Of a stretch of DNA of 45,858 nt, positions 2,804 through 39,607 are shown in pieces. The DNA lies in NCBI GenBank assembly GCA_044238735.1, contig JBIICS010000004.1, positions 1 to 45,858 of the forward strand, written 5' to 3'. Position numbers and translations under genes: made by a program. The notes below the pieces were generated by a model that did no database searches, was not told the DNA's origin, and worked only from the letters and a program-made list of their open reading frames with translations. Each line of letters starts with the position of its first letter. Positions within the stretch are counted from its first letter, which is position 1. This DNA is from Bacteroidia bacterium (GTDB lineage Bacteria > Bacteroidota > Bacteroidia > UBA4408).

Positions 2804-4534
2804 TTAAACGTATGCCTTATAAACCCTTTCAATATCCTTAAGCACATCTTCCTGAAAGGCCTCATTATAATTGAAAACAAAATCGATGTAACGCTCATCA
2901 CGCGGATCAATTAATTTCAGACTTTTAATTTTAGGTGAAGAGCCATCGGTAATTCTTAAACTTAGTCTTCCATCAGTTTTACCTTTAGGGAATAGCATGA
3001 TAATATTATTACTACCAACTTTAACCGAAACACGAGAGGAAGATTCTGCTACAGAATAAGCATTAAGCCCTTTAGCCTTTAAAAAGGAAACAACAGATTC
3101 CAACTGTTTTCTAAAGAGATCAATCTTGCCGAATTGGTCAGCCGGCAAAGCAGAAGCTGCATTATCTTTTGCTGCTGGTGGATTTTTTACTTTTGATTCC
3201 ACTTCCTTTTTAGGTTTATTGTCAGAAGAACTTTGCTGAACCTTCTGTTTAACCTCTGATACGCCCCAACACTCCTTTTTTAAAAGATCATTTAAACTGT
3301 TAAAATTCACATAAGCTTCGCCCCCGGCCCCATGTTTCCATGTTTCTAAATCTCGGCTGGCCTCAATAACCGGCTTATAGGTATTATAAATTTCAATCAG
3401 AACATCCAGATAACTTCCTCTGTTATCCGGAATAAATTCATCCAAAGACAAGTACTTTTCTCCAGTTTCATCTACGCATAAATTTACAGTTCTTAAATTT
3501 CCTTCCGGCCAATCTTGGTAAATATGATCAATCTGGTCCCAGGCAAAAATTGTTGCCACGTTATTATCATCTTCATGCAACGCATGTATTCCGTTTTTGT
3601 CAACTAATATAAATGAAGCAAGCTTATCGCCATAAATAGCAAAAGGGATTACCCAAAACGCCGTTTTGGTATATTCATGTATTTCTTTTGGTAAAAATTT
3701 AAGTATTGGTATTTTATTCTCCTTAATTCTATCGCAAATAAATTTAATCTGGCTTTCGGTATATAAAGGACAAGATTTTACAATATCGGGTAAGAAATCC
3801 GGTATATAAGCCTTAATACTCATGCTTCTGGCATAATAAGAAGTTTTAGCCACATGATTATTCAAATAAGCGTTTACAACATCCTTTGATTTGGCTAATA
3901 CCGTTTTTTCAATATTTCTAAATCTTATTCCGGGATAATCGATATCATTTTCCTCATCACCATCACTGTTAACATCATCATCCACTTCCTCTTCCTCTTC
4001 CTCTTCCTCTTCGTCTTCGTCTTCATCAATATCTTCATTGTTATTTTGGGTAAATTTTGCACCTTCTATTTTTATATTAGCTTTTTCTATATCTAAATGA
4101 GCCTGAATGAGATTTTCAACTTCATTTCTTTCGATATTCATTTGTTCCCCAATTTCATATAACCACGAAATCTCTCCTTTTTTCAGCTCCCCATCACTCA
4201 ATGCCAATTCAATAACATATGTAAACATTAAATATGCTACATCTAAATCATTGCCTAAACTTTTGTGTATATTTCTAGCAATTTCTTTAACGGAATTTAA
4301 TAATTGATTATCGACTTTAAAATCACTAATAATAGCTTGAGAAAGTTGTGTTCCGACTATCATAGCTGTTACAACTTTACCAGCATCACCATCTGATAAT
4401 TCAGTTAATATATCCTTTATTTTATCACTCTCTTCTTGAGATAATTTTCCATCGCTTTTGGTTGCAAATATCATTAATAAAGTAGCGAAATAGTCAAGCA
4501 TAGTAGGATTATAATTTTCTTCCTTTTTTTTCAT
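2804..4534 (-). CDS. TerB-like domain protein with acidic linker, possible PH-like middle domain and duplicated C-terminal domain
   Basis: Two TerB-type DG-x-L-xxx-E motifs (KSDGKLSQEE, LSDGELKKGE), poly-E/D tract, FILVDKNGI...FAWDQI segment, C-terminal module shared with 1..1686. Confidence 0.75.
   Translation of the reverse strand: MKKKEENYNPTMLDYFATLLMIFATKSDGKLSQEESDKIKDILTELSDGDAGKVVTAMIVGTQLSQAIISDFKVDNQLLNSVKEIARNIHKSLGNDLDVAYLMFTYVIELALSDGELKKGEISWLYEIGEQMNIERNEVENLIQAHLDIEKANIKIEGAKFTQNNNEDIDEDEDEEEEEEEEEVDDDVNSDGDEENDIDYPGIRFRNIEKTVLAKSKDVVNAYLNNHVAKTSYYARSMSIKAYIPDFLPDIVKSCPLYTESQIKFICDRIKENKIPILKFLPKEIHEYTKTAFWVIPFAIYGDKLASFILVDKNGIHALHEDDNNVATIFAWDQIDHIYQDWPEGNLRTVNLCVDETGEKYLSLDEFIPDNRGSYLDVLIEIYNTYKPVIEASRDLETWKHGAGGEAYVNFNSLNDLLKKECWGVSEVKQKVQQSSSDNKPKKEVESKVKNPPAAKDNAASALPADQFGKIDLFRKQLESVVSFLKAKGLNAYSVAESSSRVSVKVGSNNIIMLFPKGKTDGRLSLRITDGSSPKIKSLKLIDPRDERYIDFVFNYNEAFQEDVLKDIERVYKAYV
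2819..3148 (-). repeat. Duplicated coding module, copy 2 (paralog of 385..714)
   Basis: Same alignment as copy 1; here it forms the protein C-terminus. Confidence 0.95.
3985..4026. repeat. Hexamer microsatellite (CTTCCT)4(CTTCGT)2CTTCAT encoding the poly-Glu/Asp tract
   Basis: Read directly from sequence; unit length preserves frame. Confidence 0.85.
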
Positions 4535-4727
4535 AATTGTGCTTTTTTTAAATTTTATTTATAATTTCTTATAAAATACTCATTTATAACACCACAACTC
4601 AATCAACTTGTTGTAATACACTTTTTACTCGCTGTAATTAATTATTTACTATTTAATATATTGTTTTAAGCAGCATAATAATTTAATTTGTATAAACAAG
4701 TTAAAACAGAATTACTTAGCTTTAAAC

Positions 4728-6173
4728 ATGAAACTATTATTTGTAGTCTTTTTTATTTATACTGTGGCCTTTGCCCAAAAACAATGTAGTTTATTACAAC
4801 AACAGGGCAAATGGGACGAATCGTTACGTTGCTCATTTGAAGTATTAAATGAGTTTAAGCTTAAGAGTGGTAAACAGGCCGATGAGATTAAAGCTGATGC
4901 CTGTTATAATATCGGTAATATTTATTTTAAAGTAACTGATAAAACCTACAGTAAATTATATTTTGATAGCGCGTTATATTTTGCAACAAAAACAAAATAT
5001 CATCTATTGAAAGGGAAAATTTATTTAATACGCAATCAGTTAGACAGTGTGCGGCTAATAAATAATAAACTTAATAATGCAGATTTATGGATGTCTTATC
5101 ATCTAAAAAAATGCAACTTTAGGGATAATAACAGGTTTGGCAATACCCACCGGAACATCGATAGTGCAATTACTTTTTATAACTCTTCTTCCGACTTAAA
5201 AAAGTTTCAGTATAACATTGGATTTGCTCAATTTTTGAGCCATTGCAAAATACACGACACTGCTTTAATTTATTTAAATAAAGCAAAGAGCTTCCTCAAA
5301 AATATAGCCGATATGGAAGCAGACCATCATTATGCTTTAATTGCCTGCGAAATTTATCTTAACTGTAATAATCAAGATCAGGCGTTTTATTGGTATCGCC
5401 AACAAGATAGCTTAATTAAGAAGTTCTCTTCTAAACCGGCTTTAATTGCTATGAGAGAATTGGAAGATATTCGGCAATTTAAAATAAAGGATGCTAGGTT
5501 AATAGAAGAACGTAATCGGTTTTTTATTATTAGTATAGTCTCTTCTTCTTTATTAATTATTCTGGGTATTCTACTTTACTTTATTAGAAAAAACAGAAAA
5601 CAACTGATTATAACTACTCAACTAAACCAACACCTTTCTTTCTTATTGTCCACTCTATCGCATGATATTCGTTCGCCCCTGGTTTCTCTTTTTTATATGA
5701 ATAATAAGGAGCATACCGAACAAACCATTAGAACAACTAAGCAATTAAAAAAAATTATCGCAATGGTTGATGATCTTTTACACTGGTCTTCCTCTAATTT
5801 AAATTTAATTACTACCCATAAAGTAAAAATTGATCTACTTGAAATTATTGACGAATGGAATGAATTTTTTAAAGAGGATCTAAAGGCTAAAAATTTAACT
5901 CTACAATTAAATGCGCCCAAACCATTAATCTATTTCGATATGCAGATATTACAACTAATTTTAAGAAATACACTTACCAATGCCATAAAATATAGTAAGT
6001 CTGACCAAGAAATTGAAATAAACCTTAATTACACCGATTTTAACGAAGGTTGCCTACGAATACTGAATACAATTGATACTGAAGCAACGCATCATACAAT
6101 TCCATCGAAAGGTTTGGGTCTTAAATTAATTATTCCGCTGTTAAAGAAGGAGAAAATAGAGTTAACACATTGA
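4728..6173 (+). CDS. Sensor histidine kinase (signal peptide, TPR-like periplasmic region, TM, HisKA, HATPase); C-terminus probably clipped
   Basis: H-box SHDIRSPL, N-box RNTLTNAIKYS, G2 KGLGL; frame continues past TGA 6171-6173 to TAA 6210-6212. Confidence 0.85.
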   Translation: MKLLFVVFFIYTVAFAQKQCSLLQQQGKWDESLRCSFEVLNEFKLKSGKQADEIKADACYNIGNIYFKVTDKTYSKLYFDSALYFATKTKYHLLKGKIYLIRNQLDSVRLINNKLNNADLWMSYHLKKCNFRDNNRFGNTHRNIDSAITFYNSSSDLKKFQYNIGFAQFLSHCKIHDTALIYLNKAKSFLKNIADMEADHHYALIACEIYLNCNNQDQAFYWYRQQDSLIKKFSSKPALIAMRELEDIRQFKIKDARLIEERNRFFIISIVSSSLLIILGILLYFIRKNRKQLIITTQLNQHLSFLLSTLSHDIRSPLVSLFYMNNKEHTEQTIRTTKQLKKIIAMVDDLLHWSSSNLNLITTHKVKIDLLEIIDEWNEFFKEDLKAKNLTLQLNAPKPLIYFDMQILQLILRNTLTNAIKYSKSDQEIEINLNYTDFNEGCLRILNTIDTEATHHTIPSKGLGLKLIIPLLKKEKIELTH

Positions 6174-31889: not shown

Positions 31890-32951
31890 ATGAAACTAAA
31901 ATTTATTACCTCCATCCTACTTTTTTCCGGTTTATCCTTAAATATTACCAAAGCTGCAGTTTTAACTGTAAGCAATAATACGGCATTACCGGGAAGTCCG
32001 GGTCAGTATTCAACCATTTCGTCTGCCTTAACAGCAGCAAGTAATGGGGATACTATTTTAATTCAGCCTTCTCCGTTACCTTACAACGAGAGTTTAAACA
32101 TTACCAAAAGCCTTACCCTTATTGGTGCCGGGTATAACCCGCAAAATAATAACAATTATTTTAGTAAGATTAATGGAAGCATTTCCTTTAAAGATGGTTC
32201 CAGCAACTGCAAATTAATTGGTTTGTGGGTATCATCAAGCATTGGGTTTAGCAATCAATTTGCTAATGTATCCGAGTTTCTTTTTTCGCGTTGTTATTTT
32301 GAATCAAGTATTAATTTATTCAATGGGGGACCAGCTACAAGTAATCAGGCTAGCGGTTTTACGGTAGAAAATTGTTATGTAGCAGGGGCAATATGGTATG
32401 CTTACAGTTCGATTACAGTTAGAAATTGTATTTTAGGAAGTAGGATACAAGACGCTACTAATACAAGTACTACAACCCTTTATATTCGTAATAATTTATT
32501 TTTAAACTCATCCACCCCTCTTTATTATGTTCAAAATTCTGTTTTCGAAAATAATATTTTTTGGGGCTTAACCACTTTAGACCCTAATCTTGTAAAGAAT
32601 AATACGTTTAATAATAACTACGTTTACGGTTCTTTTAACTTGCCTTTTGCTACCAATGTAGGTTCAGGAAACATTACCGATCAGGTTTCACCCTATAACG
32701 GAAATCCTTCTCCATTTTCCGTTTCATTTAACTATCGTCCGTTACCTGGTTCGGCTATTGCTAATGCCGGAACAGATAGCAAAGATATTGGACCTACCGG
32801 TGGAGCATTTCCTATTTACTTGTATCCAGCACCGTATCCATTAACTGGGGAGCCCAATATCCCTCAAATTCAAACCATCAATATGCCGGTTTCTTCAGCA
32901 CCGCAAGGTGGAAACATTAATGTTACGGTTAAAGCTCGTAATCGTAAATAA
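31890..32951 (+). CDS. Secreted right-handed parallel beta-helix protein without a T9SS CTD
   Basis: Signal peptide; YSTISSALTAASNGDTILI cap, Asn-rich coils (RNNLF, ENNIF, NNNYV), SAIANAGTDSKDIGPTGG closure, Ig-strand-like tail. Confidence 0.85.
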   Translation: MKLKFITSILLFSGLSLNITKAAVLTVSNNTALPGSPGQYSTISSALTAASNGDTILIQPSPLPYNESLNITKSLTLIGAGYNPQNNNNYFSKINGSISFKDGSSNCKLIGLWVSSSIGFSNQFANVSEFLFSRCYFESSINLFNGGPATSNQASGFTVENCYVAGAIWYAYSSITVRNCILGSRIQDATNTSTTTLYIRNNLFLNSSTPLYYVQNSVFENNIFWGLTTLDPNLVKNNTFNNNYVYGSFNLPFATNVGSGNITDQVSPYNGNPSPFSVSFNYRPLPGSAIANAGTDSKDIGPTGGAFPIYLYPAPYPLTGEPNIPQIQTINMPVSSAPQGGNINVTVKARNRK

Positions 32952-33029
32952 TAAGTTAAGATTATAGATCGGTTTTTTAAAAATACCTTTTATCGAACTA
33001 TAATTAAAAACTTAACTAAAAAAATCAAA

Positions 33030-35828
33030 ATGAAACGATTATTGCTACTTCAAATTCTTTTTTGCATGTGCTTTTATAAGTTATATGCACAGGATTCGGT
33101 TATCCAAGGGGAATATTACATTGATACTGACCCGGGTATGGGTAATGGCACCAACTTAAACTATAGCGCACAAGGGGATTCAGCTAGTTCAACGCTTAAT
33201 TTTTCAACTACTGGCTTAACAGCAGGTTTTCATAAAATATATTTTCGCTATAAAAACAATTTAGGCAACTGGGGTCCCAGTGGCGAACAGTTATTTTTTG
33301 TAATTGATACAAATTTTCAGTCCGCAAGCAACACAGCTCCTCTCCTAAAATCGGGAGAATACTATTTTGATGTTGATCCCGGTTTTGAAAACGGAACTCC
33401 TTTTCAAGTTAATCCGCTTGATAGTATAACTGTAAATCTCAATTTACTAACACAAAATTTAGCTGTAGGTTTTCATAAAGCCTATTTTAGAGTTAAGGAT
33501 CAACTGGGTGTATACAGTACCAGTGGGGAGAAATTATTTTATATATATGACACCACTAAAACGAATACACAAGCAAATTTGCCCAAAATTATAGCCATGG
33601 AATATTTCTTCGATCAGTTAGATCCCGGAGCAGGAAATGCAAGTCCTTTTTCGGTATTTAGCGCTAACGACAGTGTAAATATTCCACAATTAATTCAGGT
33701 CATAGATCCTCTTTTCCTAGATCCATTACCTGTTGGCGTTCATGTATTAAACGTTAGAGCTAAAGATCAAAGTGGCAATTGGGGTATGACTTACTCTGTG
33801 GCTTTTACCGTTTGCGATCAACCCGCCACTGCAAATTTTACATACCAGGTTAGTGGAACCACCGTAACATTTACAAATACATCTACACAAGATTATGGAA
33901 CTAAGTGGATTTTTGGCGATGGTAATGTTGCCACCAGCAGAAATGCCACCCATAATTATGGCTTAGGCGGCCAAATAAGAGTGGGTTTAATTTCTTACAG
34001 TGGTTGTGGTAACGATACTGCCTGGCAAATTATAACTTTAAATTGCGTTAGCCCTGTAGCTAGTTTTACCAAAAGTGTAAGCGACTTAAGGGTGAGTTTT
34101 ACCGCACCCTTTTATTTGGGCGCAACCTACTCATGGACTTTTGGCAACGGAAAATCAAGTACGTTACAAAACCCGGTTGCCGTGTTTCAAAACACCGGAA
34201 CCTTTAACGTTTGCCTTACTATAACGACTTCTTGCGGTTCCAGTGTTTATTGTGAAAACGTTAGTGTTAGTTGTGCTCCACCAGTTTCTTCTTTTACTAC
34301 TGATGTTAATGGATATACCGTTAACCTAACCAACAACTCTACCAATGCTTTCCAGTTTATTTGGCAATTTGGTGATGCTACCACTAACAACATCGATTTT
34401 AATGCGGTTAAGCAATACGCATCTTCAGGTACTTACAACATTAAACTAATTGTACAGAATGGCTGTGGGACTAATCAAACGACTAAAAGCGTAACCATTA
34501 ATTGCTCCTCCCCCACATCCAACTTCGAATTTATCACCTCAGGTTTGCAAACCGAAGTAAGTAATGCCTCTGTAAATGGCACTTCATGGTTATGGAATTT
34601 TGGTGATGGCACAACCAGCCCATTTAAAAATCCCTCCATTCATACATTTCCTAACACAGGCACCTATAATGTATGTCTTAAGACCACTAATAACTGTGGA
34701 GCAGATAGTATTTGTAAAGAAGTATATGTGTGTACAGGTCCAACAGCTAATTTTTCTTATACATTGGCCGGTTTAAGTATTAATCTTACCGATTTAAGTT
34801 TAAATTCCGAAAACACCTTCTGGACATTAGGAGATGGCAACGGAACAAACCTCTTAAATCCAACTTACACCTATAATTCATATGGAAATTATAACGTTTG
34901 TGTTGAAGCCAGCAATTCTTGTGGATCCAATAAATTATGTAAAAACATAAGCACAACCTGTAGCGAACAAAGTAGCCAGGAAGTTTGTCAGGCTACCGTA
35001 GAAGGTTTACTGGCAAAACGTTATGAGATTTATTGGGAAAAACCACAAACCACTTCGATAGATAGTTTTGTAGTTTATCGAAAAATTACCTCTACACAAT
35101 ATCAACGCATAGGAGCAATCGGATACAACCTGCCTTCTTTTTTTACTGATCTTCAGATCTTGGCGGGTACACAGGCTCAATCCTATAAAGTTTCTCTTAA
35201 AGATACCTGCGGTATTGAAAGTCCGCTTAGCAACGTAGAACACACTACCGTTCATGTAGTAGTTGATTTTACAGCATCAAACGAACCTCGTTTAACGTTT
35301 AATGAATATCAAGGCAGAGCAGTTTCTTATTACAGAATTTTAAGAAGTACAATTGGAATACCCGGATTAGACAGTATAGGTGCGGTTGCCGGCGGTGTTC
35401 TGCCAACCTACCAATACGTTGATTTAACTGCGCCTTCTGCTGATAGCGTTTGGTATAGAGTGGAAACTATATGGCAAGATGGTGGAGATTGTAATCCAGA
35501 TAGGGCTCGTATTGCAACTTCACGCTCTAATATTAAGAATGTAAATACTCGTTTAACTAAGCTAAACCAGCAACAAATGGAGAAGTTAGTTAACGTTTAC
35601 CCTAACCCGGCAAACAACACTCTAAACATTAGTATGGAATACAACATGCGCGAAAAAGTAACGCTTCGCCTTTTTGATATGCAGGGCAAAATGTTAATGG
35701 AGCAGAAGGAAGAAGCCAGAGGCTATTTCCAAACACAACTTAACCTTAGCGATTTAAGTATTGGCGCTTATCAGCTTCAGATACAAACCGAAGGTGGATT
35801 TATAAACAAAAAAATAATAAAGCAGTAA
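33030..35828 (+). CDS. T9SS type A cargo: 3 EY(Y/F)xDxDPG modules, 5 PKD domains, FN3-like region, CTD
   Basis: PKD cores WIFGDG, WTFGNG, WQFGDA, WNFGDG, WTLGDG; CTD VYPNPA...GAYQLQI...KKIIKQ. Confidence 0.92.
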   Translation: MKRLLLLQILFCMCFYKLYAQDSVIQGEYYIDTDPGMGNGTNLNYSAQGDSASSTLNFSTTGLTAGFHKIYFRYKNNLGNWGPSGEQLFFVIDTNFQSASNTAPLLKSGEYYFDVDPGFENGTPFQVNPLDSITVNLNLLTQNLAVGFHKAYFRVKDQLGVYSTSGEKLFYIYDTTKTNTQANLPKIIAMEYFFDQLDPGAGNASPFSVFSANDSVNIPQLIQVIDPLFLDPLPVGVHVLNVRAKDQSGNWGMTYSVAFTVCDQPATANFTYQVSGTTVTFTNTSTQDYGTKWIFGDGNVATSRNATHNYGLGGQIRVGLISYSGCGNDTAWQIITLNCVSPVASFTKSVSDLRVSFTAPFYLGATYSWTFGNGKSSTLQNPVAVFQNTGTFNVCLTITTSCGSSVYCENVSVSCAPPVSSFTTDVNGYTVNLTNNSTNAFQFIWQFGDATTNNIDFNAVKQYASSGTYNIKLIVQNGCGTNQTTKSVTINCSSPTSNFEFITSGLQTEVSNASVNGTSWLWNFGDGTTSPFKNPSIHTFPNTGTYNVCLKTTNNCGADSICKEVYVCTGPTANFSYTLAGLSINLTDLSLNSENTFWTLGDGNGTNLLNPTYTYNSYGNYNVCVEASNSCGSNKLCKNISTTCSEQSSQEVCQATVEGLLAKRYEIYWEKPQTTSIDSFVVYRKITSTQYQRIGAIGYNLPSFFTDLQILAGTQAQSYKVSLKDTCGIESPLSNVEHTTVHVVVDFTASNEPRLTFNEYQGRAVSYYRILRSTIGIPGLDSIGAVAGGVLPTYQYVDLTAPSADSVWYRVETIWQDGGDCNPDRARIATSRSNIKNVNTRLTKLNQQQMEKLVNVYPNPANNTLNISMEYNMREKVTLRLFDMQGKMLMEQKEEARGYFQTQLNLSDLSIGAYQLQIQTEGGFINKKIIKQ

Positions 35829-36388
35829 TGAAAGCAAATTTTATTATAAAACTATCAGTTTCGGTTTTTGTTGCTGCACTAATAAACTCATGTTCTTCAA
35901 ATGCCGTTAAGGACAATGGAAATAAAACCGATAATCAAAACATCCAACTTCTTGCCGGAGTTAGCAGCTTTAATAACAATTGTTGTTCAAGCGACACTAG
36001 CTCATGCTGCACACTTGATCTTTTAAAAGAATTTGTAGAACAAGTTAAGCAAGGAAAACTAAAAGTATACGCTACTCCCGATGACACAATTCCAATGTCA
36101 ACAGAGGATGTTAACCGCTATTTAGGTCCTCCTCCGGCTGACACCTTGTTAGTTGAAGACCCAGAAAACCCAAGTAAAATGGTAATGAAAGTAATTGAAC
36201 ATAAGGCTTTAGACTTGTCAAGCGGTGATGCCAGCTTTTATTTTATTGAAGACTGGAAAGTAAATAAAGAGTCTTTTAGAATTGAAAAAGTTATTAAAGC
36301 AGTTGGATTAGGCGAAACCAAATATTCAGAAGAAGGAACCCCAAAAGGAGTTAGGGTTTATTTTTATTACAAGTACCCTAATTCTTAA
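35828..36388 (+). CDS. GldN/PorN-like lipoprotein (short)
   Basis: Lipobox INSC; VKQGKLKVY, PMSTEDV, FIEDWKVNKE, KVIKAVG resemble the GldN core; TAATG coupling to the cargo gene. Confidence 0.6.
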   Translation: MKANFIIKLSVSVFVAALINSCSSNAVKDNGNKTDNQNIQLLAGVSSFNNNCCSSDTSSCCTLDLLKEFVEQVKQGKLKVYATPDDTIPMSTEDVNRYLGPPPADTLLVEDPENPSKMVMKVIEHKALDLSSGDASFYFIEDWKVNKESFRIEKVIKAVGLGETKYSEEGTPKGVRVYFYYKYPNS

Positions 36389-36432: not shown

Positions 36433-36460
36433 AAAAGCGGCTTTAAAAGCCGCTTTTTTT
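36433..36460 (+). terminator. Intrinsic terminator closing the beta-helix/PKD/GldN-like operon
   Basis: AAAAGCGGCTTT-A-AAAGCCGCTTTT followed by further T. Confidence 0.9.
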
Positions 36461-36472
36461 GTTTAAATTTAC

Positions 36473-39400
36473 TTGTTGCTTCGTTATATATTTATACCAC
36501 TTTTATTCTTCATCATAGCTACTAAAATTAGTTTTAGCCAGCGCTTAAATCTCACTTATTTCTCCGAAAAACAAGGTCTGCCTATTGCACAAATTTCTTG
36601 CGTTCACGAAGATAAATATGGCTTTATTTGGACCGGAACCATGGGAAGTGGATTGGCTCGCTATAAAGGTGAAAAGTTTGAAACATTCAATATAAATAAC
36701 GGTTTGCCCTTTGGTGATATTATTACTTTAAATTCATCTCCAAAAGACAGTGCACTTTGGATTGGCACAAACGGCAGTGGCATTATCAAATATCACAAAG
36801 GAAAATTCTCTCTTATCAATAAAGGATTAAACGGTAAACTCATTTATTCCATTTATTTTACCCAAAACAACCAGGTATTGATAGGTACAAAAGATGACGG
36901 ATTGTATTATGGTACTGAAAATAATTACAAAAAAATAAATCATTTTAACTCACATTCGATCTATGCCATATCAGAATTAAATAATAATTTATACATAGCT
37001 ACCAGCAAAGGCGCATATGTTTGCGACCTAAACTTTTCTAACGTAAAGAAAATTGAATTGCCGATAAAAGGCCCTCTCTTTTCCATATTTATTGATAAGC
37101 AAAAAACGATATGGTTTGGTTCATCTAATGGCGAGATCATCAACCTAAATAAAGATATAATAACACTCATTACACATCCCGATATAAACGAAACAATTAT
37201 TGGAGGTTTTACTCAAGATAGAAGCGGAACAATATGGGCTGTTTGTGATGCCGGTCTTTTAAAAATCCAAAATCTTAAACTCAAAATATTAAACTCGGAA
37301 AACGGTATATTAGACCCCACTTTGTATTGCATAACTTCAGATCGCGACGATCATATTTGGATTGGGAGTGACCTTAAAGGCCTGGCTGAATTTTCTAATA
37401 ATGGAATAGTTTCTTTTTATCGCGATGACTATTTAACTGATAACACAGCAAGCTCCAGTTTATATGTTAATCAAAATAAAATTTGGCTTGGTAATAACAC
37501 AGACGGTATACTAGAGATTAACAACAACGAAGAATTAAATTCTATTAAACAAATTTTATCCAAAGAAAGAATCATTCAGATATGCAAACTAAACGATTTA
37601 CTTTTAGTTACAACTGAAAACTCGGAATTAATTACAATTGAGGGCGAAAAAATATCCCGCATCAAATTAGTAGATGGTGAAAATAACTACATAATATCAC
37701 AAATTTCGTCTGCCTCATCTTCCAAACTAATTGGTGTTTCCTATGGTCATGGTATTTGCGAAATAGATTTAAAATATAAAACCTGTAAATCAATTAGCAT
37801 TGATAATATTGACAATAGCCTAATGAGTATTGAAAAACTCAATAACACTTATTACTTGGCTTCTTACCAAATGGGATTATTTAAATGGAACGGAAACAGT
37901 TCTAAAGCAAGTGAGATTTCATTTAACCAGAAACAAAGCATAAAAAGCATCTTCTGCTTGGCAAACTCTAATAACTGCATTCTTGCCGGAACTTTAGATT
38001 TAGGCATATTTATTATTAAAGATGATAAAATAATTTCTAACATAAGCATCAAAAACGGCTTGCCTTCAAACGAAATTAAATCAATTAAAGCTATTGGTAA
38101 AAATAAAATTGTTGTTGGAACATCCAAAGGCATATCCTTACTAAATTTCGAAAACAATATCTTTAAAGTGGTAAAAAATTATGGTTCAATGGATGGAATT
38201 GATATTGAAAATCTGTTACCCGACATTTTATATTGCGATGAACAAAAAAACAAAGTATACGTTGGACTAAAACACGGTTTTCAGCAGATAGACATTACAA
38301 AGGAGTACAACCCTGATTTACCTCTTTTTTCAATTTCAAAAATCCACATAAACAATCAAGACAGTTCCATCATTGAAAAAGATATTTTCTTTTTTGAAAA
38401 AAACAGTAGCATTATTTTACCCTATAGCAAGAATAATCTTAAGATAACATTTGAAGCACACTCTCCTCTCGAAAAATTAGAATACACTTTCCTGCTCGAG
38501 AACTTTGATGAAAACTGGACAGACTGGTCAACTTCAGGTGAGTTCATTAATAACAATATACCCCCCGGAGAATATATACTTAAAGCAAAATCGCGAATTA
38601 TTAATTCGGAAATCGAATCTAAAACACAATACATTAAAATACTAATTTCTCCACCTTTTTATAGGACCTGGTGGTTTATATCGTTATGTGTAATTTTTGG
38701 TGCGATTAGCATATACCTTTTCATACAATACAGAACTCAAAAACTAATTAAAGAAAAGGAAATACTGGAAGCAAAAGTTGAGGAGCGTACGCATGAATTA
38801 AAAGAATCTAACTTAAAATTAGAACATGCCTATACAGACATTAAAGACAGTATAAACTATGCTGAAAAAATCCAAAGGGCTATATTACCAATGGATGATT
38901 TAATTAAAAAATATTTACCAGATTCCTTTGTTTTATTTCAACCAAGAGATATAGTAAGCGGCGATTTTTATTGGTTTGGAACCATTAATGTAGATGAAGA
39001 TTACGAAAAGGACTATATCCTTTTTGCAACAGCCGATTGCACCGGCCATGGTGTTCCGGGAGCATTTATGAGTATGGTAGGTAATACTATTCTTAATGAA
39101 ATTGTTTTAACAAACAAGGTTTTTAAGCCCGGCGAAATTTTACATCAATTGCATTTAGGAGTAAAGAAAGCATTAAAACAAAACGAAAACCAATCGCGCG
39201 ACGGCATGGATATCGCCTTATGCTGTATCGATATTAGAAACAATAAATTATTGTATGCTGGAGCTAATCGGCCATTATGGCTTATTGATGCAAACGGTTT
39301 AACCGAAATGAAAGCAACAAAAAGTGCAATTGGAGGTTTTACAGACGATTCGACTGTTTTTCAGGAACACGAGATAACTTTAACCCCTGATATGCAGTTT

Positions 39401-39607
39401 TATACATTTAGCGACGGATACCCCGATCAATTTGGCGGACCGGAAGGTAAAAAATTTATGACCAAACGATTAAAAGACTTAATTGTTGCAAAGAAAGACA
39501 TTTCATTTAAAGAAAAGAAAGAATTCTTTACAACTACCATAAACGAATGGATGGGTAAAGAACACGAACAAATAGACGATATACTTTTAGTTGGATTTAA
39601 AGTGTAG
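36473..39607 (+). CDS. Membrane sensor phosphatase: Reg_prop beta-propellers, Y_Y_Y, TM, SpoIIE/PP2C
   Basis: EDKYGFIWTGT-type repeats, NIPPGEYIL, PPFYRTWWF, ADCTGHGVPGAFMS, SDGYPDQFGG, QIDDILL. TTG start uncertain. Confidence 0.92.
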   Translation: MLLRYIFIPLLFFIIATKISFSQRLNLTYFSEKQGLPIAQISCVHEDKYGFIWTGTMGSGLARYKGEKFETFNINNGLPFGDIITLNSSPKDSALWIGTNGSGIIKYHKGKFSLINKGLNGKLIYSIYFTQNNQVLIGTKDDGLYYGTENNYKKINHFNSHSIYAISELNNNLYIATSKGAYVCDLNFSNVKKIELPIKGPLFSIFIDKQKTIWFGSSNGEIINLNKDIITLITHPDINETIIGGFTQDRSGTIWAVCDAGLLKIQNLKLKILNSENGILDPTLYCITSDRDDHIWIGSDLKGLAEFSNNGIVSFYRDDYLTDNTASSSLYVNQNKIWLGNNTDGILEINNNEELNSIKQILSKERIIQICKLNDLLLVTTENSELITIEGEKISRIKLVDGENNYIISQISSASSSKLIGVSYGHGICEIDLKYKTCKSISIDNIDNSLMSIEKLNNTYYLASYQMGLFKWNGNSSKASEISFNQKQSIKSIFCLANSNNCILAGTLDLGIFIIKDDKIISNISIKNGLPSNEIKSIKAIGKNKIVVGTSKGISLLNFENNIFKVVKNYGSMDGIDIENLLPDILYCDEQKNKVYVGLKHGFQQIDITKEYNPDLPLFSISKIHINNQDSSIIEKDIFFFEKNSSIILPYSKNNLKITFEAHSPLEKLEYTFLLENFDENWTDWSTSGEFINNNIPPGEYILKAKSRIINSEIESKTQYIKILISPPFYRTWWFISLCVIFGAISIYLFIQYRTQKLIKEKEILEAKVEERTHELKESNLKLEHAYTDIKDSINYAEKIQRAILPMDDLIKKYLPDSFVLFQPRDIVSGDFYWFGTINVDEDYEKDYILFATADCTGHGVPGAFMSMVGNTILNEIVLTNKVFKPGEILHQLHLGVKKALKQNENQSRDGMDIALCCIDIRNNKLLYAGANRPLWLIDANGLTEMKATKSAIGGFTDDSTVFQEHEITLTPDMQFYTFSDGYPDQFGGPEGKKFMTKRLKDLIVAKKDISFKEKKEFFTTTINEWMGKEHEQIDDILLVGFKV

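Follow-up and report, generated by a model that had tools for sequence, protein, structure and literature searches.

A conserved beta-helix/T9SS scaffold gene pair of Bacteroidota as a probable donor-strand docking system

Gene pair and domain organisation

We analysed 45,858 nt of the Bacteroidia bacterium contig JBIICS010000004.1 (GCA_044238735.1), hereafter the window, with positions counted from its first letter. Two neighbouring open reading frames (ORFs) on its plus strand are the subject of this study: P0001 (31890-32951, 353 aa), which encodes a putative secreted beta-helix protein, and P0002 (33030-35828, 932 aa), which lies 78 nt apart on the same strand and encodes a scaffold with a type IX secretion system (T9SS) C-terminal sorting domain (CTD). 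A first-pass annotation of the window had proposed that the tail of P0001 completes three truncated immunoglobulin (Ig)-like modules at the start of P0002, and we conclude that the observation is real and that the pair is probably a new donor-strand docking system. The span concerned, 32862-33812, consists of the last 29 codons of P0001 followed by two stops (TAA TAA), 75 nt of spacer and codons 1-261 of P0002.

The N-terminus of P0001 (aa 1-22, 31890-31955) resembles a signal peptide when the translation is read by eye, with a basic start, a hydrophobic run and small residues ahead of AVLTVSNN. It is followed by a body (aa 23-305, 31956-32804) that family alignment and remote matches suggest to be a right-handed beta-helix 'head', and by a Pro-rich linker (aa 306-324, 32805-32861). 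The linker varies in length across the family, with 12-23 residues between a conserved TGG and the invariant P325 and gaps in most alignment rows. The C-terminal two-strand tail (aa 325-353, 32862-32948) is the proposed donor of strands A and B, as judged from its conservation and from the model of a fused homologue. P0001 matches no Pfam and no NCBIfam family and hence no CTD; its signal-peptide-like N-terminus, its missing CTD and its Pro-rich linker and tail are as first annotated. The double stop and the A+T-rich spacer occupy 32949-33029.

P0002 has a putative signal peptide (aa 1-21, 33030-33092; read from the translation), right behind which a run of three repeats of 73-81 aa begins. 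A repeat model built from 70 repeats, all of other proteins, places them at aa 24-96 (33099-33317, E 2.3e-22), 107-179 (33348-33566, E 7e-21) and 187-267 (33588-33830, E 8.1e-18), close to the boundaries first proposed (aa ~24-93, 105-174 and 186-261). AlphaFold2 (AF2) models repeats 1 and 2 with a predicted local distance difference test (pLDDT) of 91-97 and 93-97; repeat 3, which has an insertion ahead of strand 4, is modelled in blocks of 65-94. A PKD stalk (about aa 268-640, 33831-34949; PF18911 E 1.2e-46 in five stretches, PF00801 E 3.1e-28) and a stretch with no Pfam or NCBIfam match of note (about aa 641-855, 34950-35594) lead to a type A CTD (aa 856-930, 35595-35819) that matches PF18962 with 55.1 bits (cut-off 27, E 9.6e-15) and TIGR04183 with 46.8 bits (cut-off 23, E 2.1e-12). 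The 92 T9SS CTD matches in this genome suggest that the organism has a T9SS.

No terminator-like site was found between P0001 and P0002, the next one lying at 36433-36457, past a 186-aa ORF. RNA-library contigs span both genes in four freshwater runs, and in three of these they reach across the spacer; such contigs cannot show a single transcript, its ends or its level. Contigs of two runs have an extra AA at spacer position 32978, and with ~34 single-base differences over 4.1 kb the RNA contigs appear to derive from strain variants of the same freshwater organism.

Conservation of the cassette

At all 78 genomic loci found with the helix profile, a helix ORF is directly followed by a repeat ORF on the same strand. 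P0001 and P0002 are conserved neighbours in 78 and 75 of these loci, and no third neighbour is conserved, the other 12 window ORFs tested occurring at 0-3 of the 78. Among 301 genomes of the class, a tally that includes one unpublished genome (G180) used for the tallies only, 63 have a strong helix match, 63 a repeat match, 57 both and 232 neither. The 12 discordant genomes were inspected and comprise nine pairs, two cases cut by contig ends and one genome (G274) with a deviant helix C-terminus and no repeat gene. Specifically, the 'helix only' genomes are four with a gene of 2-3 repeats downstream, one at a contig end and G274, while five 'repeat only' genomes have a helix gene of a second class (class 2, see below) directly upstream and the sixth starts at a contig end. 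The 'orphan' repeat genes inspected have a class-2 helix gene upstream, save for L097, where the repeats are internal, and L094, at a contig end. Tail-bearing and repeat genes thus occur together almost one to one, and the refuting condition named in the first-pass annotation, DPG-repeat genes that commonly have no tail-bearing partner, was not observed.

A scan of metagenome contigs for class-2 genes gave 80 loci, of which 73 are pairs, four are cut by contig ends and three, a single sequence in three assemblies, have a diverged repeat missed by the model. Both sets together contain 154 cassettes in 158 loci, with one (137), two (10), three (6) or four (1) helix genes per scaffold; as many of the loci are related, and some repeat one sequence across assemblies, these counts are not independent trials. 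The cassette ranges over Bacteroidota and is also present in records of Ignavibacteriae, Latescibacterota and Balneolales. Its carriers include Rufibacter psychrotolerans, Lishizhenia tianjinensis, Lunatimonas lonarensis, a Pontibacter sp. and Flaviramulus multivorans, which can be cultured. None of the 15 tail-less beta-helix relatives detected has a repeat gene nearby, and two of them have a Por_Secre_tail of their own. The only full-length class-1 gene seen without the tail C-terminus (L100, G274:C73, helix ORF 4022-5125) is also the only one without a repeat gene within 7 kb downstream.

In eleven natural fusions the two parts form a single chain, always in the order helix, tail, 8-20 aa, repeat 1. 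They are found at L081-L083 (three related genomes), L084 and twice at L085, and as P0188, P0221, P0244, P0272 and P0273, the last two of which contain PF18962. Loci L081-L083 and L085 keep a free tail-bearing helix gene beside the fused first repeat. Because the helix is the N-terminal portion of the cargo chain in these proteins, it is an exported part of the cargo. In the split form the break falls exactly where two loose ends would come together, the C-terminus of the helix protein and the mature N-terminus of the scaffold.

The beta-helix family and its tail

P0001 belongs to a family of ~350-aa proteins with 166 matches, the best 120 listed being mostly 327-402 aa long. The tail is the extreme C-terminus in all 36 homologues of the family alignment (A1) and in all 37 tails that were aligned separately, with the consensus TG.P.IPQ....T.P.SSVP.GGTLNV.VKARK.N behind the variable-length linker; being conserved and terminal throughout, it is no chance feature. 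A second helix class of ~405-450 aa again ends in a two-strand tail (..ARVY.V.AP....G.T.N.K...FDR, ending ..FDR or ..YSK). The two classes are homologous (hhalign of A1 against A5, Prob 98.7, E 2.4e-16), and the alignment runs through the tails. Where helix paralogues share a locus, their last 30 residues are more alike than their bodies (0.60 vs 0.42, 23 of 25 pairs).

Two other readings of the tail were considered and rejected. As a general tag it would also occur on proteins of other kinds, but a tail-only profile run over 151 genomes gave 32 matches, all at the ends of helix genes. That the tail is a degenerate repeat fragment was likewise rejected: an early hhalign comparison to strands C'-E-F gave P 0.02, and larger profiles gave Prob 0.5 and E 0.11.

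At E<=0.01 no Pfam family was found for P0001 or for any of the 36 members of A1, and the Beta_helix (PF13229) threshold was not reached; PF13229 is precomputed for 3 of the best 120 listed homologues out of 166. The ESM Atlas lead for P0001 points to PF13229 clusters (0.95, 177 shared features), the A1 profile matches NosD/Beta_helix proteins over their N-terminal half (E about 1e-8 to 1e-13), and searches of the PDB with the helix profile gave weak matches alone, such as the GH28 structure 3jur (E 0.018). From the Atlas lead, the weak profile matches and the A1 matches to NosD/Beta_helix proteins, we infer that the body is a right-handed beta-helix. The invariant columns of A1 contain no conserved acidic pair, and since the head family thus has no conserved acidic catalytic set, our guess at its function is binding or adhesion rather than catalysis.

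Class-2 genes were seen among loci L086-L099 and L133-L212, for example L086:1528-2736 and L099:8970-10259. Up to four tandem class-2 paralogues precede one scaffold, and one scaffold is a 9780-aa giant (G231:C1). The class-2 gene L091:5153-6478 is split by a stop at ~5908-5912, either a sequencing error or a recent break, with its tail and the downstream scaffold intact.

The repeat family and scaffold architecture

The three-repeat region matches 5218 of 1.84 billion representative proteins (E<=0.001). The repeat is a very large unnamed family, for which neither Pfam nor NCBIfam has a model. Within tandem arrays the units recur every 68-82 residues, and one 4532-aa protein has as many as 37 motif matches. 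In Pfam just the last two strands are matched, in part, by Y_Y_Y, Big_13 and GbpA_D3; the Y_Y_Y (PF07495) match of P0002 lies below threshold (25.4 bits vs 26.6) and covers aa 232-261 of repeat 3 and model positions 34-64 of 65, with no stretch passing by itself. The ESM Atlas contains no structure of P0001 or P0002, and its feature matches to the repeats (0.88) are no more than leads. PDB searches by sequence gave one match for the repeats (E 0.18) and three for the fusion profile, all set aside as chance.

The repeat model starts a median of 24 residues (interquartile range 22-26) past a signal-peptide-like Met in 144 of 161 scaffold ORFs, as judged by a crude pattern, and within the first 60 residues in 140 of the best 150 representatives. 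The middle of the scaffold varies (PKD, Ig_7, Big_9, SprB), and among 50 complete scaffolds 33 match Por_Secre_tail and 14 match CHU_C, counts that may overlap, at least three matching neither. What stays constant is the array of repeats at the N-terminus together with the T9SS signal at the C-terminus. Repeat 1 has the same consensus as the internal repeats (maximum Jensen-Shannon divergence (JS) 0.13), so any unit could be an acceptor and equally none is marked out. Between repeats paired with class 1 helices and those paired with class 2 helices, the divergence is largest in the C'-E region and in strand G (JS 0.32 and 0.34), which would be the neighbours of strands B and A, and smallest in strand C, the DPG loop and strand F (JS 0.13, 0.08 and 0.15).

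Diverged repeats without the DPG loop (EYW.D.. or ARYWFDSG), some of them at aa 760 or 1175, occur at L022, L041, L069, L077, L078 and L162:3207-7202 and may be a sister repeat family poorly detected by the model. The 572-aa fusion L085:10379-12094 and the scaffolds of L094 and L095 end in D.NGDG.VN..D-type repeats instead of a T9SS CTD; we take these repeats to have a dockerin/EF-hand look.

Every repeat of P0002 has D-S-(A/I/V) in the loop just ahead of strand E (aa 50-52, 131-133 and 214-216; 33177-33185, 33420-33428 and 33669-33677). This fits the Bacteroidota O-glycosylation motif D-S/T-A/L/V/I/M/T, as given in an excerpt of PMC12871550. At the corresponding model position 144 of 290 internal repeats and 31 of 81 first repeats have the Asp, and a glycan at this site would adjoin the edge of the face proposed for the tail.

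Fold of the repeats and of the tail

Mean-field direct coupling analysis (DCA) of 1640 repeats (Meff 1444) gave antiparallel ladders between strands 1 and 4 (C-F), strands 4 and 5 (F-G), and strand 1 and the DPG loop (C-C'), which together make up a C'-C-F-G sheet. Strand 3 (E) has cross-sheet core contacts alone and no ladder partner. Completion of adjacent repeats by each other found no support, as DCA on 1254 adjacent pairs gave just same-position and intra-repeat echoes and no ladder between units. The three repeats of the window alone were modelled by AF2 with a mean pLDDT of 89.0 and a predicted TM-score (pTM) of 0.48; in each apo unit strands C, F and G are long, whereas the C'-E region has just short or partial ones. 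For the fusion at L081, a model of aa 300-500 (linker, tail, repeats 1 and 2) reached a mean pLDDT of 92.3 and a pTM of 0.62. In it the tail forms strands at model residues 20-26, 29-31 and 35-43 (pLDDT 91-97), and strand E of repeat 1 is a full nine-residue strand (76-84), which the same segment of the tail-less repeat 2 is not.

These models were compared with 48,161 PDB representatives using VIA-align. Residues 15-120 of the L081 model (tail and repeat 1) cover whole single domains, with 102 chains at Z>=8, among them the PKD domain 4xed (Z 11.2, rmsd 2.8, 96 of 97 residues), the FnIII-like 3pe9 (Z 10.3, rmsd 1.9, 88 of 90) and 9kvu (Z 10.1, 92 of 94). The window repeats alone match 62-67 residues of 90-97-residue domains, from about residue 30 on, and no chain reaches Z>=8: residues 31-96 of 97 in 4xed (Z 5.2, 66 aligned), 29-90 of 90 in 3pe9 (Z 5.7, 62 aligned) and 719-784 in the Y_Y_Y domain of BT4663 (4a2l; Z 5.0, rmsd 3.6, 62 aligned), all three of these for repeat 2, as well as 5x83 from about residue 30 to its end. 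Repeat 1 aligns to the last two thirds of Ig-like domains alone, for example 1sox 377-466 and 4ofp 358-429. The match of the apo repeats to 5j6z_B, the anastellin entry, is weak (Z 4.9, rmsd 8.2, 85 aligned), and Foldseek of the three-repeat model returned low-TM matches to tandem Ig-like arrays alone, so that the informative comparison is the VIA-align search by domain.

According to passages of PMC5121618, the BT4663 Y_Y_Y domain has ~120 residues, a G-X-Y signature in b6 and a 3+4 topology (b1-b2-b5 / b4-b3-b6-b7) shared with T9SS CTDs. Compared by hhalign with strands E-F-G of 10 complete Y_Y_Y domains from this genome, the repeats gave P 5.6e-5; the fusion profile is colinear with Y_Y_Y from the second strand of the tail on (P 0.0043, Prob 8; global P 0.029).

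In DCA, AF2 with VIA-align and hhalign, the repeats have strands C, C', E, F and G in canonical PKD/FnIII/Y_Y_Y order, and a complete domain with A and B was not found within the repeat chain. Since the fusion covers whole domains and the apo repeats just the last two thirds, we read the repeats as sandwiches that lack A and B, and the tail as an A-B hairpin. The first-pass annotation had reasoned, from the letters of the window, that the repeats lack two strands, that their linkers are too short to supply them and that the upstream tail matches them. All three points hold in silico: AF2 with VIA-align and DCA find no first two strands in the repeats, the linkers between repeats do not provide them, and in the L081 fusion model the homologous tail forms these two strands with repeat 1.

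Binding in trans and proposed mechanism

The complex of the three repeats (A2) with mature P0001 (A1, residues 23-353) was predicted in three runs alongside three controls and scored with ipSAE. The window's own pair scored 0.59 against 0.00 for the best control, the three runs giving 0.59, 0.62 and 0.02. Of 80 solved complexes 58 reach the mark for this score, as do 2 of 110 mismatched pairs, and scores at 0.60 or under belong to 7 of those 80 solved complexes and to both passing mismatches. Agreement in contacts between the runs is at least 0%, the partner has a pLDDT of at least 83 (83-89), and pLDDT of the repeat chain is 74, 75 and 70 with the true partner vs 61 and 58 with unrelated ones. 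The prediction is a weak pass, with one run at 0.02 and no interface reported. We count the score as modest support given the strong prior from cassette, fusions and fold; by itself it hints at binding of the window's pair in trans.

P0001 and P0002 probably form a self-contained head-and-stalk cassette. P0002 would be a T9SS cargo, taken through the outer membrane by its CTD. Type A CTDs leave their cargo anchored via the C-terminus, and P0002 would stay anchored in the same way, its PKD stalk holding the three N-terminal modules at the far end. Each module would be a PKD/FnIII/Y_Y_Y-like 3+4 sandwich with only strands C, C', E, F and G, in which strand E is without a sheet partner because strands A and B are missing. 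P0001 would be a Sec-exported, CTD-less head whose last 29 residues, on a flexible Pro-rich linker, form an A-B hairpin. In the periplasm this hairpin would insert beside strand E (and G) of a module and complete the sandwich, a two-strand donor complementation between different proteins. The head, fixed to the stalk, would then leave the cell with it via the T9SS, which carries folded proteins according to a section of PMC9251779.

The account draws on the cassette, the terminal position of both pieces, the order of the fusions, the A-B-less repeats and the complete sandwich of tail and repeat in a fusion, all observed in silico; from these we infer binding in trans, one to three occupied modules (at least the first), co-export and the role of the head. 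Taken as a whole, with A-B hairpin donation and co-export, we consider this head-and-stalk account reasonably probable.

Several points weigh against it. The score for the complex names no interface and so does not place the contact at the tail, and one run gave 0.02. Confident AF2 models of tail-less modules (pLDDT 89.0 for the apo repeats, 94-98 for repeat 2 of the fusion) mean that the repeats may be stable without a partner. The L081 construct omits the helix body, so that the tail had no other surface to pack on, and in DCA the missing ladder of strand E is a lack of signal where gaps are most frequent. In the sequence comparison with Y_Y_Y, the A-B part is not significant. Repeat 1 shows no specialisation relative to the internal repeats, and the contrasts between repeats of the two helix classes and between tails and bodies compare kin and short segments. 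At the level of loci, kinship and duplicate assemblies reduce the weight of the counts, and one extra helix ORF at L077 has no detected repeat gene within 6 kb. Some arrays are preceded by other domains (P0205, P0210, P0238) and that of L097 is internal; the scaffold matches to Por_Secre_tail and CHU_C, with at least three scaffolds matching neither, belong here too. Lastly, arrays reach about 37-50 units vs 1-4 helix genes per locus, which makes full occupancy doubtful.

A wider version, in which the cassette is a natural T9SS tag/catcher whose 1-4 CTD-less head paralogues are loaded in the periplasm, hitchhike via SprA and form a multivalent surface brush on arrays of one to tens of units, is put forward tentatively. 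On this version the T9SS would gain its first hitchhiker route, and the two genes would encode a new split-Ig docking pair. Somewhat less likely still, and doubtful in our estimate, is the strict form first proposed for the window, with every module capturing one beta-helix subunit (3:1 here) in a multivalent cellulosome-like brush able to mix head paralogues. The internal repeats share the consensus of repeat 1 and its A-B-less fold, the loci with a fused first repeat (L081-L083, L085) retain a free tail-bearing helix gene, up to four helix paralogues precede one scaffold with tails more alike than their bodies, and in all 99 complete cassettes the repeats are at least as many as the helix genes. 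This last count is a weak test, as most scaffolds have at least three repeats anyway; the tens of units per array set against 1-4 helix genes, and an AF2 confidence as high for the tail-less as for the complemented module, also argue against one head per module. Moreover, because the tail was found on one protein family alone (32 of 32 matches in 151 genomes on helix genes, none on another kind of protein), the term 'cellulosome-like' overstates the modularity of the system.

The confident prediction of the repeats alone and the weakly passed complex score, given without an interface, would also suit a tail that is part of P0001 or folded back on it, with the genes adjacent through a shared target or pathway and the fusions being ordinary domain fusions; such Rosetta-stone fusions show linkage and not the mode of contact. 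We nevertheless hold an absence of complementation in trans to be unlikely. The linker to the tail is variable and Pro-rich, the fission point lies exactly in the B-C loop with the tail terminal on one side and repeat 1 at the mature N-terminus on the other, the fusion model sets the tail inside the sandwich of repeat 1 such that whole PKD/FnIII domains are covered, and no repeat gene adjoins the tail-less relatives.

In chaperone-usher pili, incomplete Ig folds are known to be capped in the periplasm by a donor strand. P0001, with a Sec signal (by eye) and no CTD, might by this precedent be a chaperone whose hairpin completes the modules transiently and which is released at the T9SS and stays periplasmic. 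This is quite improbable, since the helix is exported as the N-terminal part of the cargo in the eleven fusions, related helix proteins with a CTD of their own exist, and a body of ~300 aa that diversifies among paralogues suits a displayed head better. That the split is a decaying remnant of a fused gene, without a function of its own, is scarcely credible: fused forms and the stop-interrupted class-2 gene of L091 exist, but conservation over 154 cassettes from Bacteroidota to Ignavibacteriae, Latescibacterota and Balneolales contradicts decay, both window ORFs are intact, each with its own signal peptide and with the tail conserved, and P0001 closes with a double stop.

Comparison with known systems

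The head-and-stalk pair would work like the donor-strand systems but belongs to neither the chaperone-usher nor the type V pilus family. It shares with both an incomplete Ig-like fold completed by one or more strands of another chain in the Gram-negative periplasm or at the surface; for the type V pili (FimA/Mfa) of Bacteroidota, strand exchange is described in an excerpt of PMC4789730. In the window pair the acceptor fold without its strands was found in silico, and completion by the tail is seen in cis in the fusion model, while in trans it has the weak pass of 0.59 against 0.00. The pair differs in lacking the two N-terminal strands (the A-B hairpin) rather than the last strand, in having as donor the C-terminal tail of an unrelated beta-helix protein rather than the next pilin or a chaperone, and in having as acceptors tandem modules of a T9SS cargo that form no polymer. 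Among the neighbours of the pair (78 loci, window ORFs as neighbours) there is no conserved gene for a chaperone, an usher or a processing protease. Anastellin (PDB 5j6z) is likewise an FnIII-type sandwich without A-B that takes the A-B strands of another FnIII in trans; it is, however, a fragment of a eukaryotic matrix protein and not a system encoded by two genes, and its structural match is weak.

As in cohesin-dockerin systems, a scaffold of repeated acceptors would hold heads by a short C-terminal tag. Cohesins are complete and dockerins bind to their surface, whereas the window tag would join the fold of the acceptor and occurs on a single head family as far as found; the Pfam matches of P0001 and P0002 at E<=1 include neither cohesin nor dockerin. 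SpyTag/SpyCatcher, engineered from one CnaB2 domain and locked by an isopeptide bond, resembles the pair in that its Ig-like domain is split, with a short peptide to complete the larger piece. It differs in being engineered and covalent, and nothing in the window pair suggests a covalent bond. The Y_Y_Y domain of BT4663 (4a2l), a hybrid two-component sensor of Bacteroides, and the PKD and T9SS-CTD sandwiches share with the repeats the strand order from C to G and a G-x-(Y/H) at the start of strand F. The BT4663 domain, by the passages of PMC5121618, has ~120 residues with N-terminal strands of its own, in contrast to the repeats of ~70 residues without them.

Hitchhiking is described for Tat and 'piggyback' transport for peroxisomes in the section of PMC9251779 cited above. 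In both, as would be the case here, a signal-less partner crosses a membrane on a signal-bearing one and folded proteins are moved; hitchhiking through the T9SS does not appear in that section of PMC9251779, and for the window pair it is a proposal of the present analysis. A literature search covering open main texts gave no description of the pair, of the repeat or of T9SS hitchhiking, which within that scope agrees with the earlier statement that the mechanism is undescribed for this gene pair.

If the head-and-stalk account is true, it would explain the surface route of a secreted CTD-less family in Bacteroidota and relatives, with the helix family present in about a fifth of the class genomes sampled (63/301). 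It would add complex export, or hitchhiking, to the T9SS and give a function to the unnamed repeat family of 5218 representative proteins. The pair would then be a natural, non-covalent split-Ig peptide and acceptor, and so a candidate protein-docking tool. The idea is directly testable with two recombinant proteins and the 29-residue peptide.

Genes downstream of the pair

A 186-aa ORF on the plus strand (35828-36388), the start of which overlaps the stop of P0002, has a lipoprotein-like N-terminus as read by eye and a sub-threshold match to GldN (E 5.5e-4, 20.1 bits vs a cut-off of 23). It is a neighbour of the pair in none of the 78 loci. The hairpin at 36433-36457 that follows it is strongly terminator-like. 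Further downstream, at 36473-39607 (+), lies the gene of a 1044-aa protein in which Reg_prop propeller repeats are combined with a SpoIIE phosphatase domain at the C-terminus and a true Y_Y_Y domain at aa 667-708. This genome has 11 Y_Y_Y matches, the 1044-aa protein among them.

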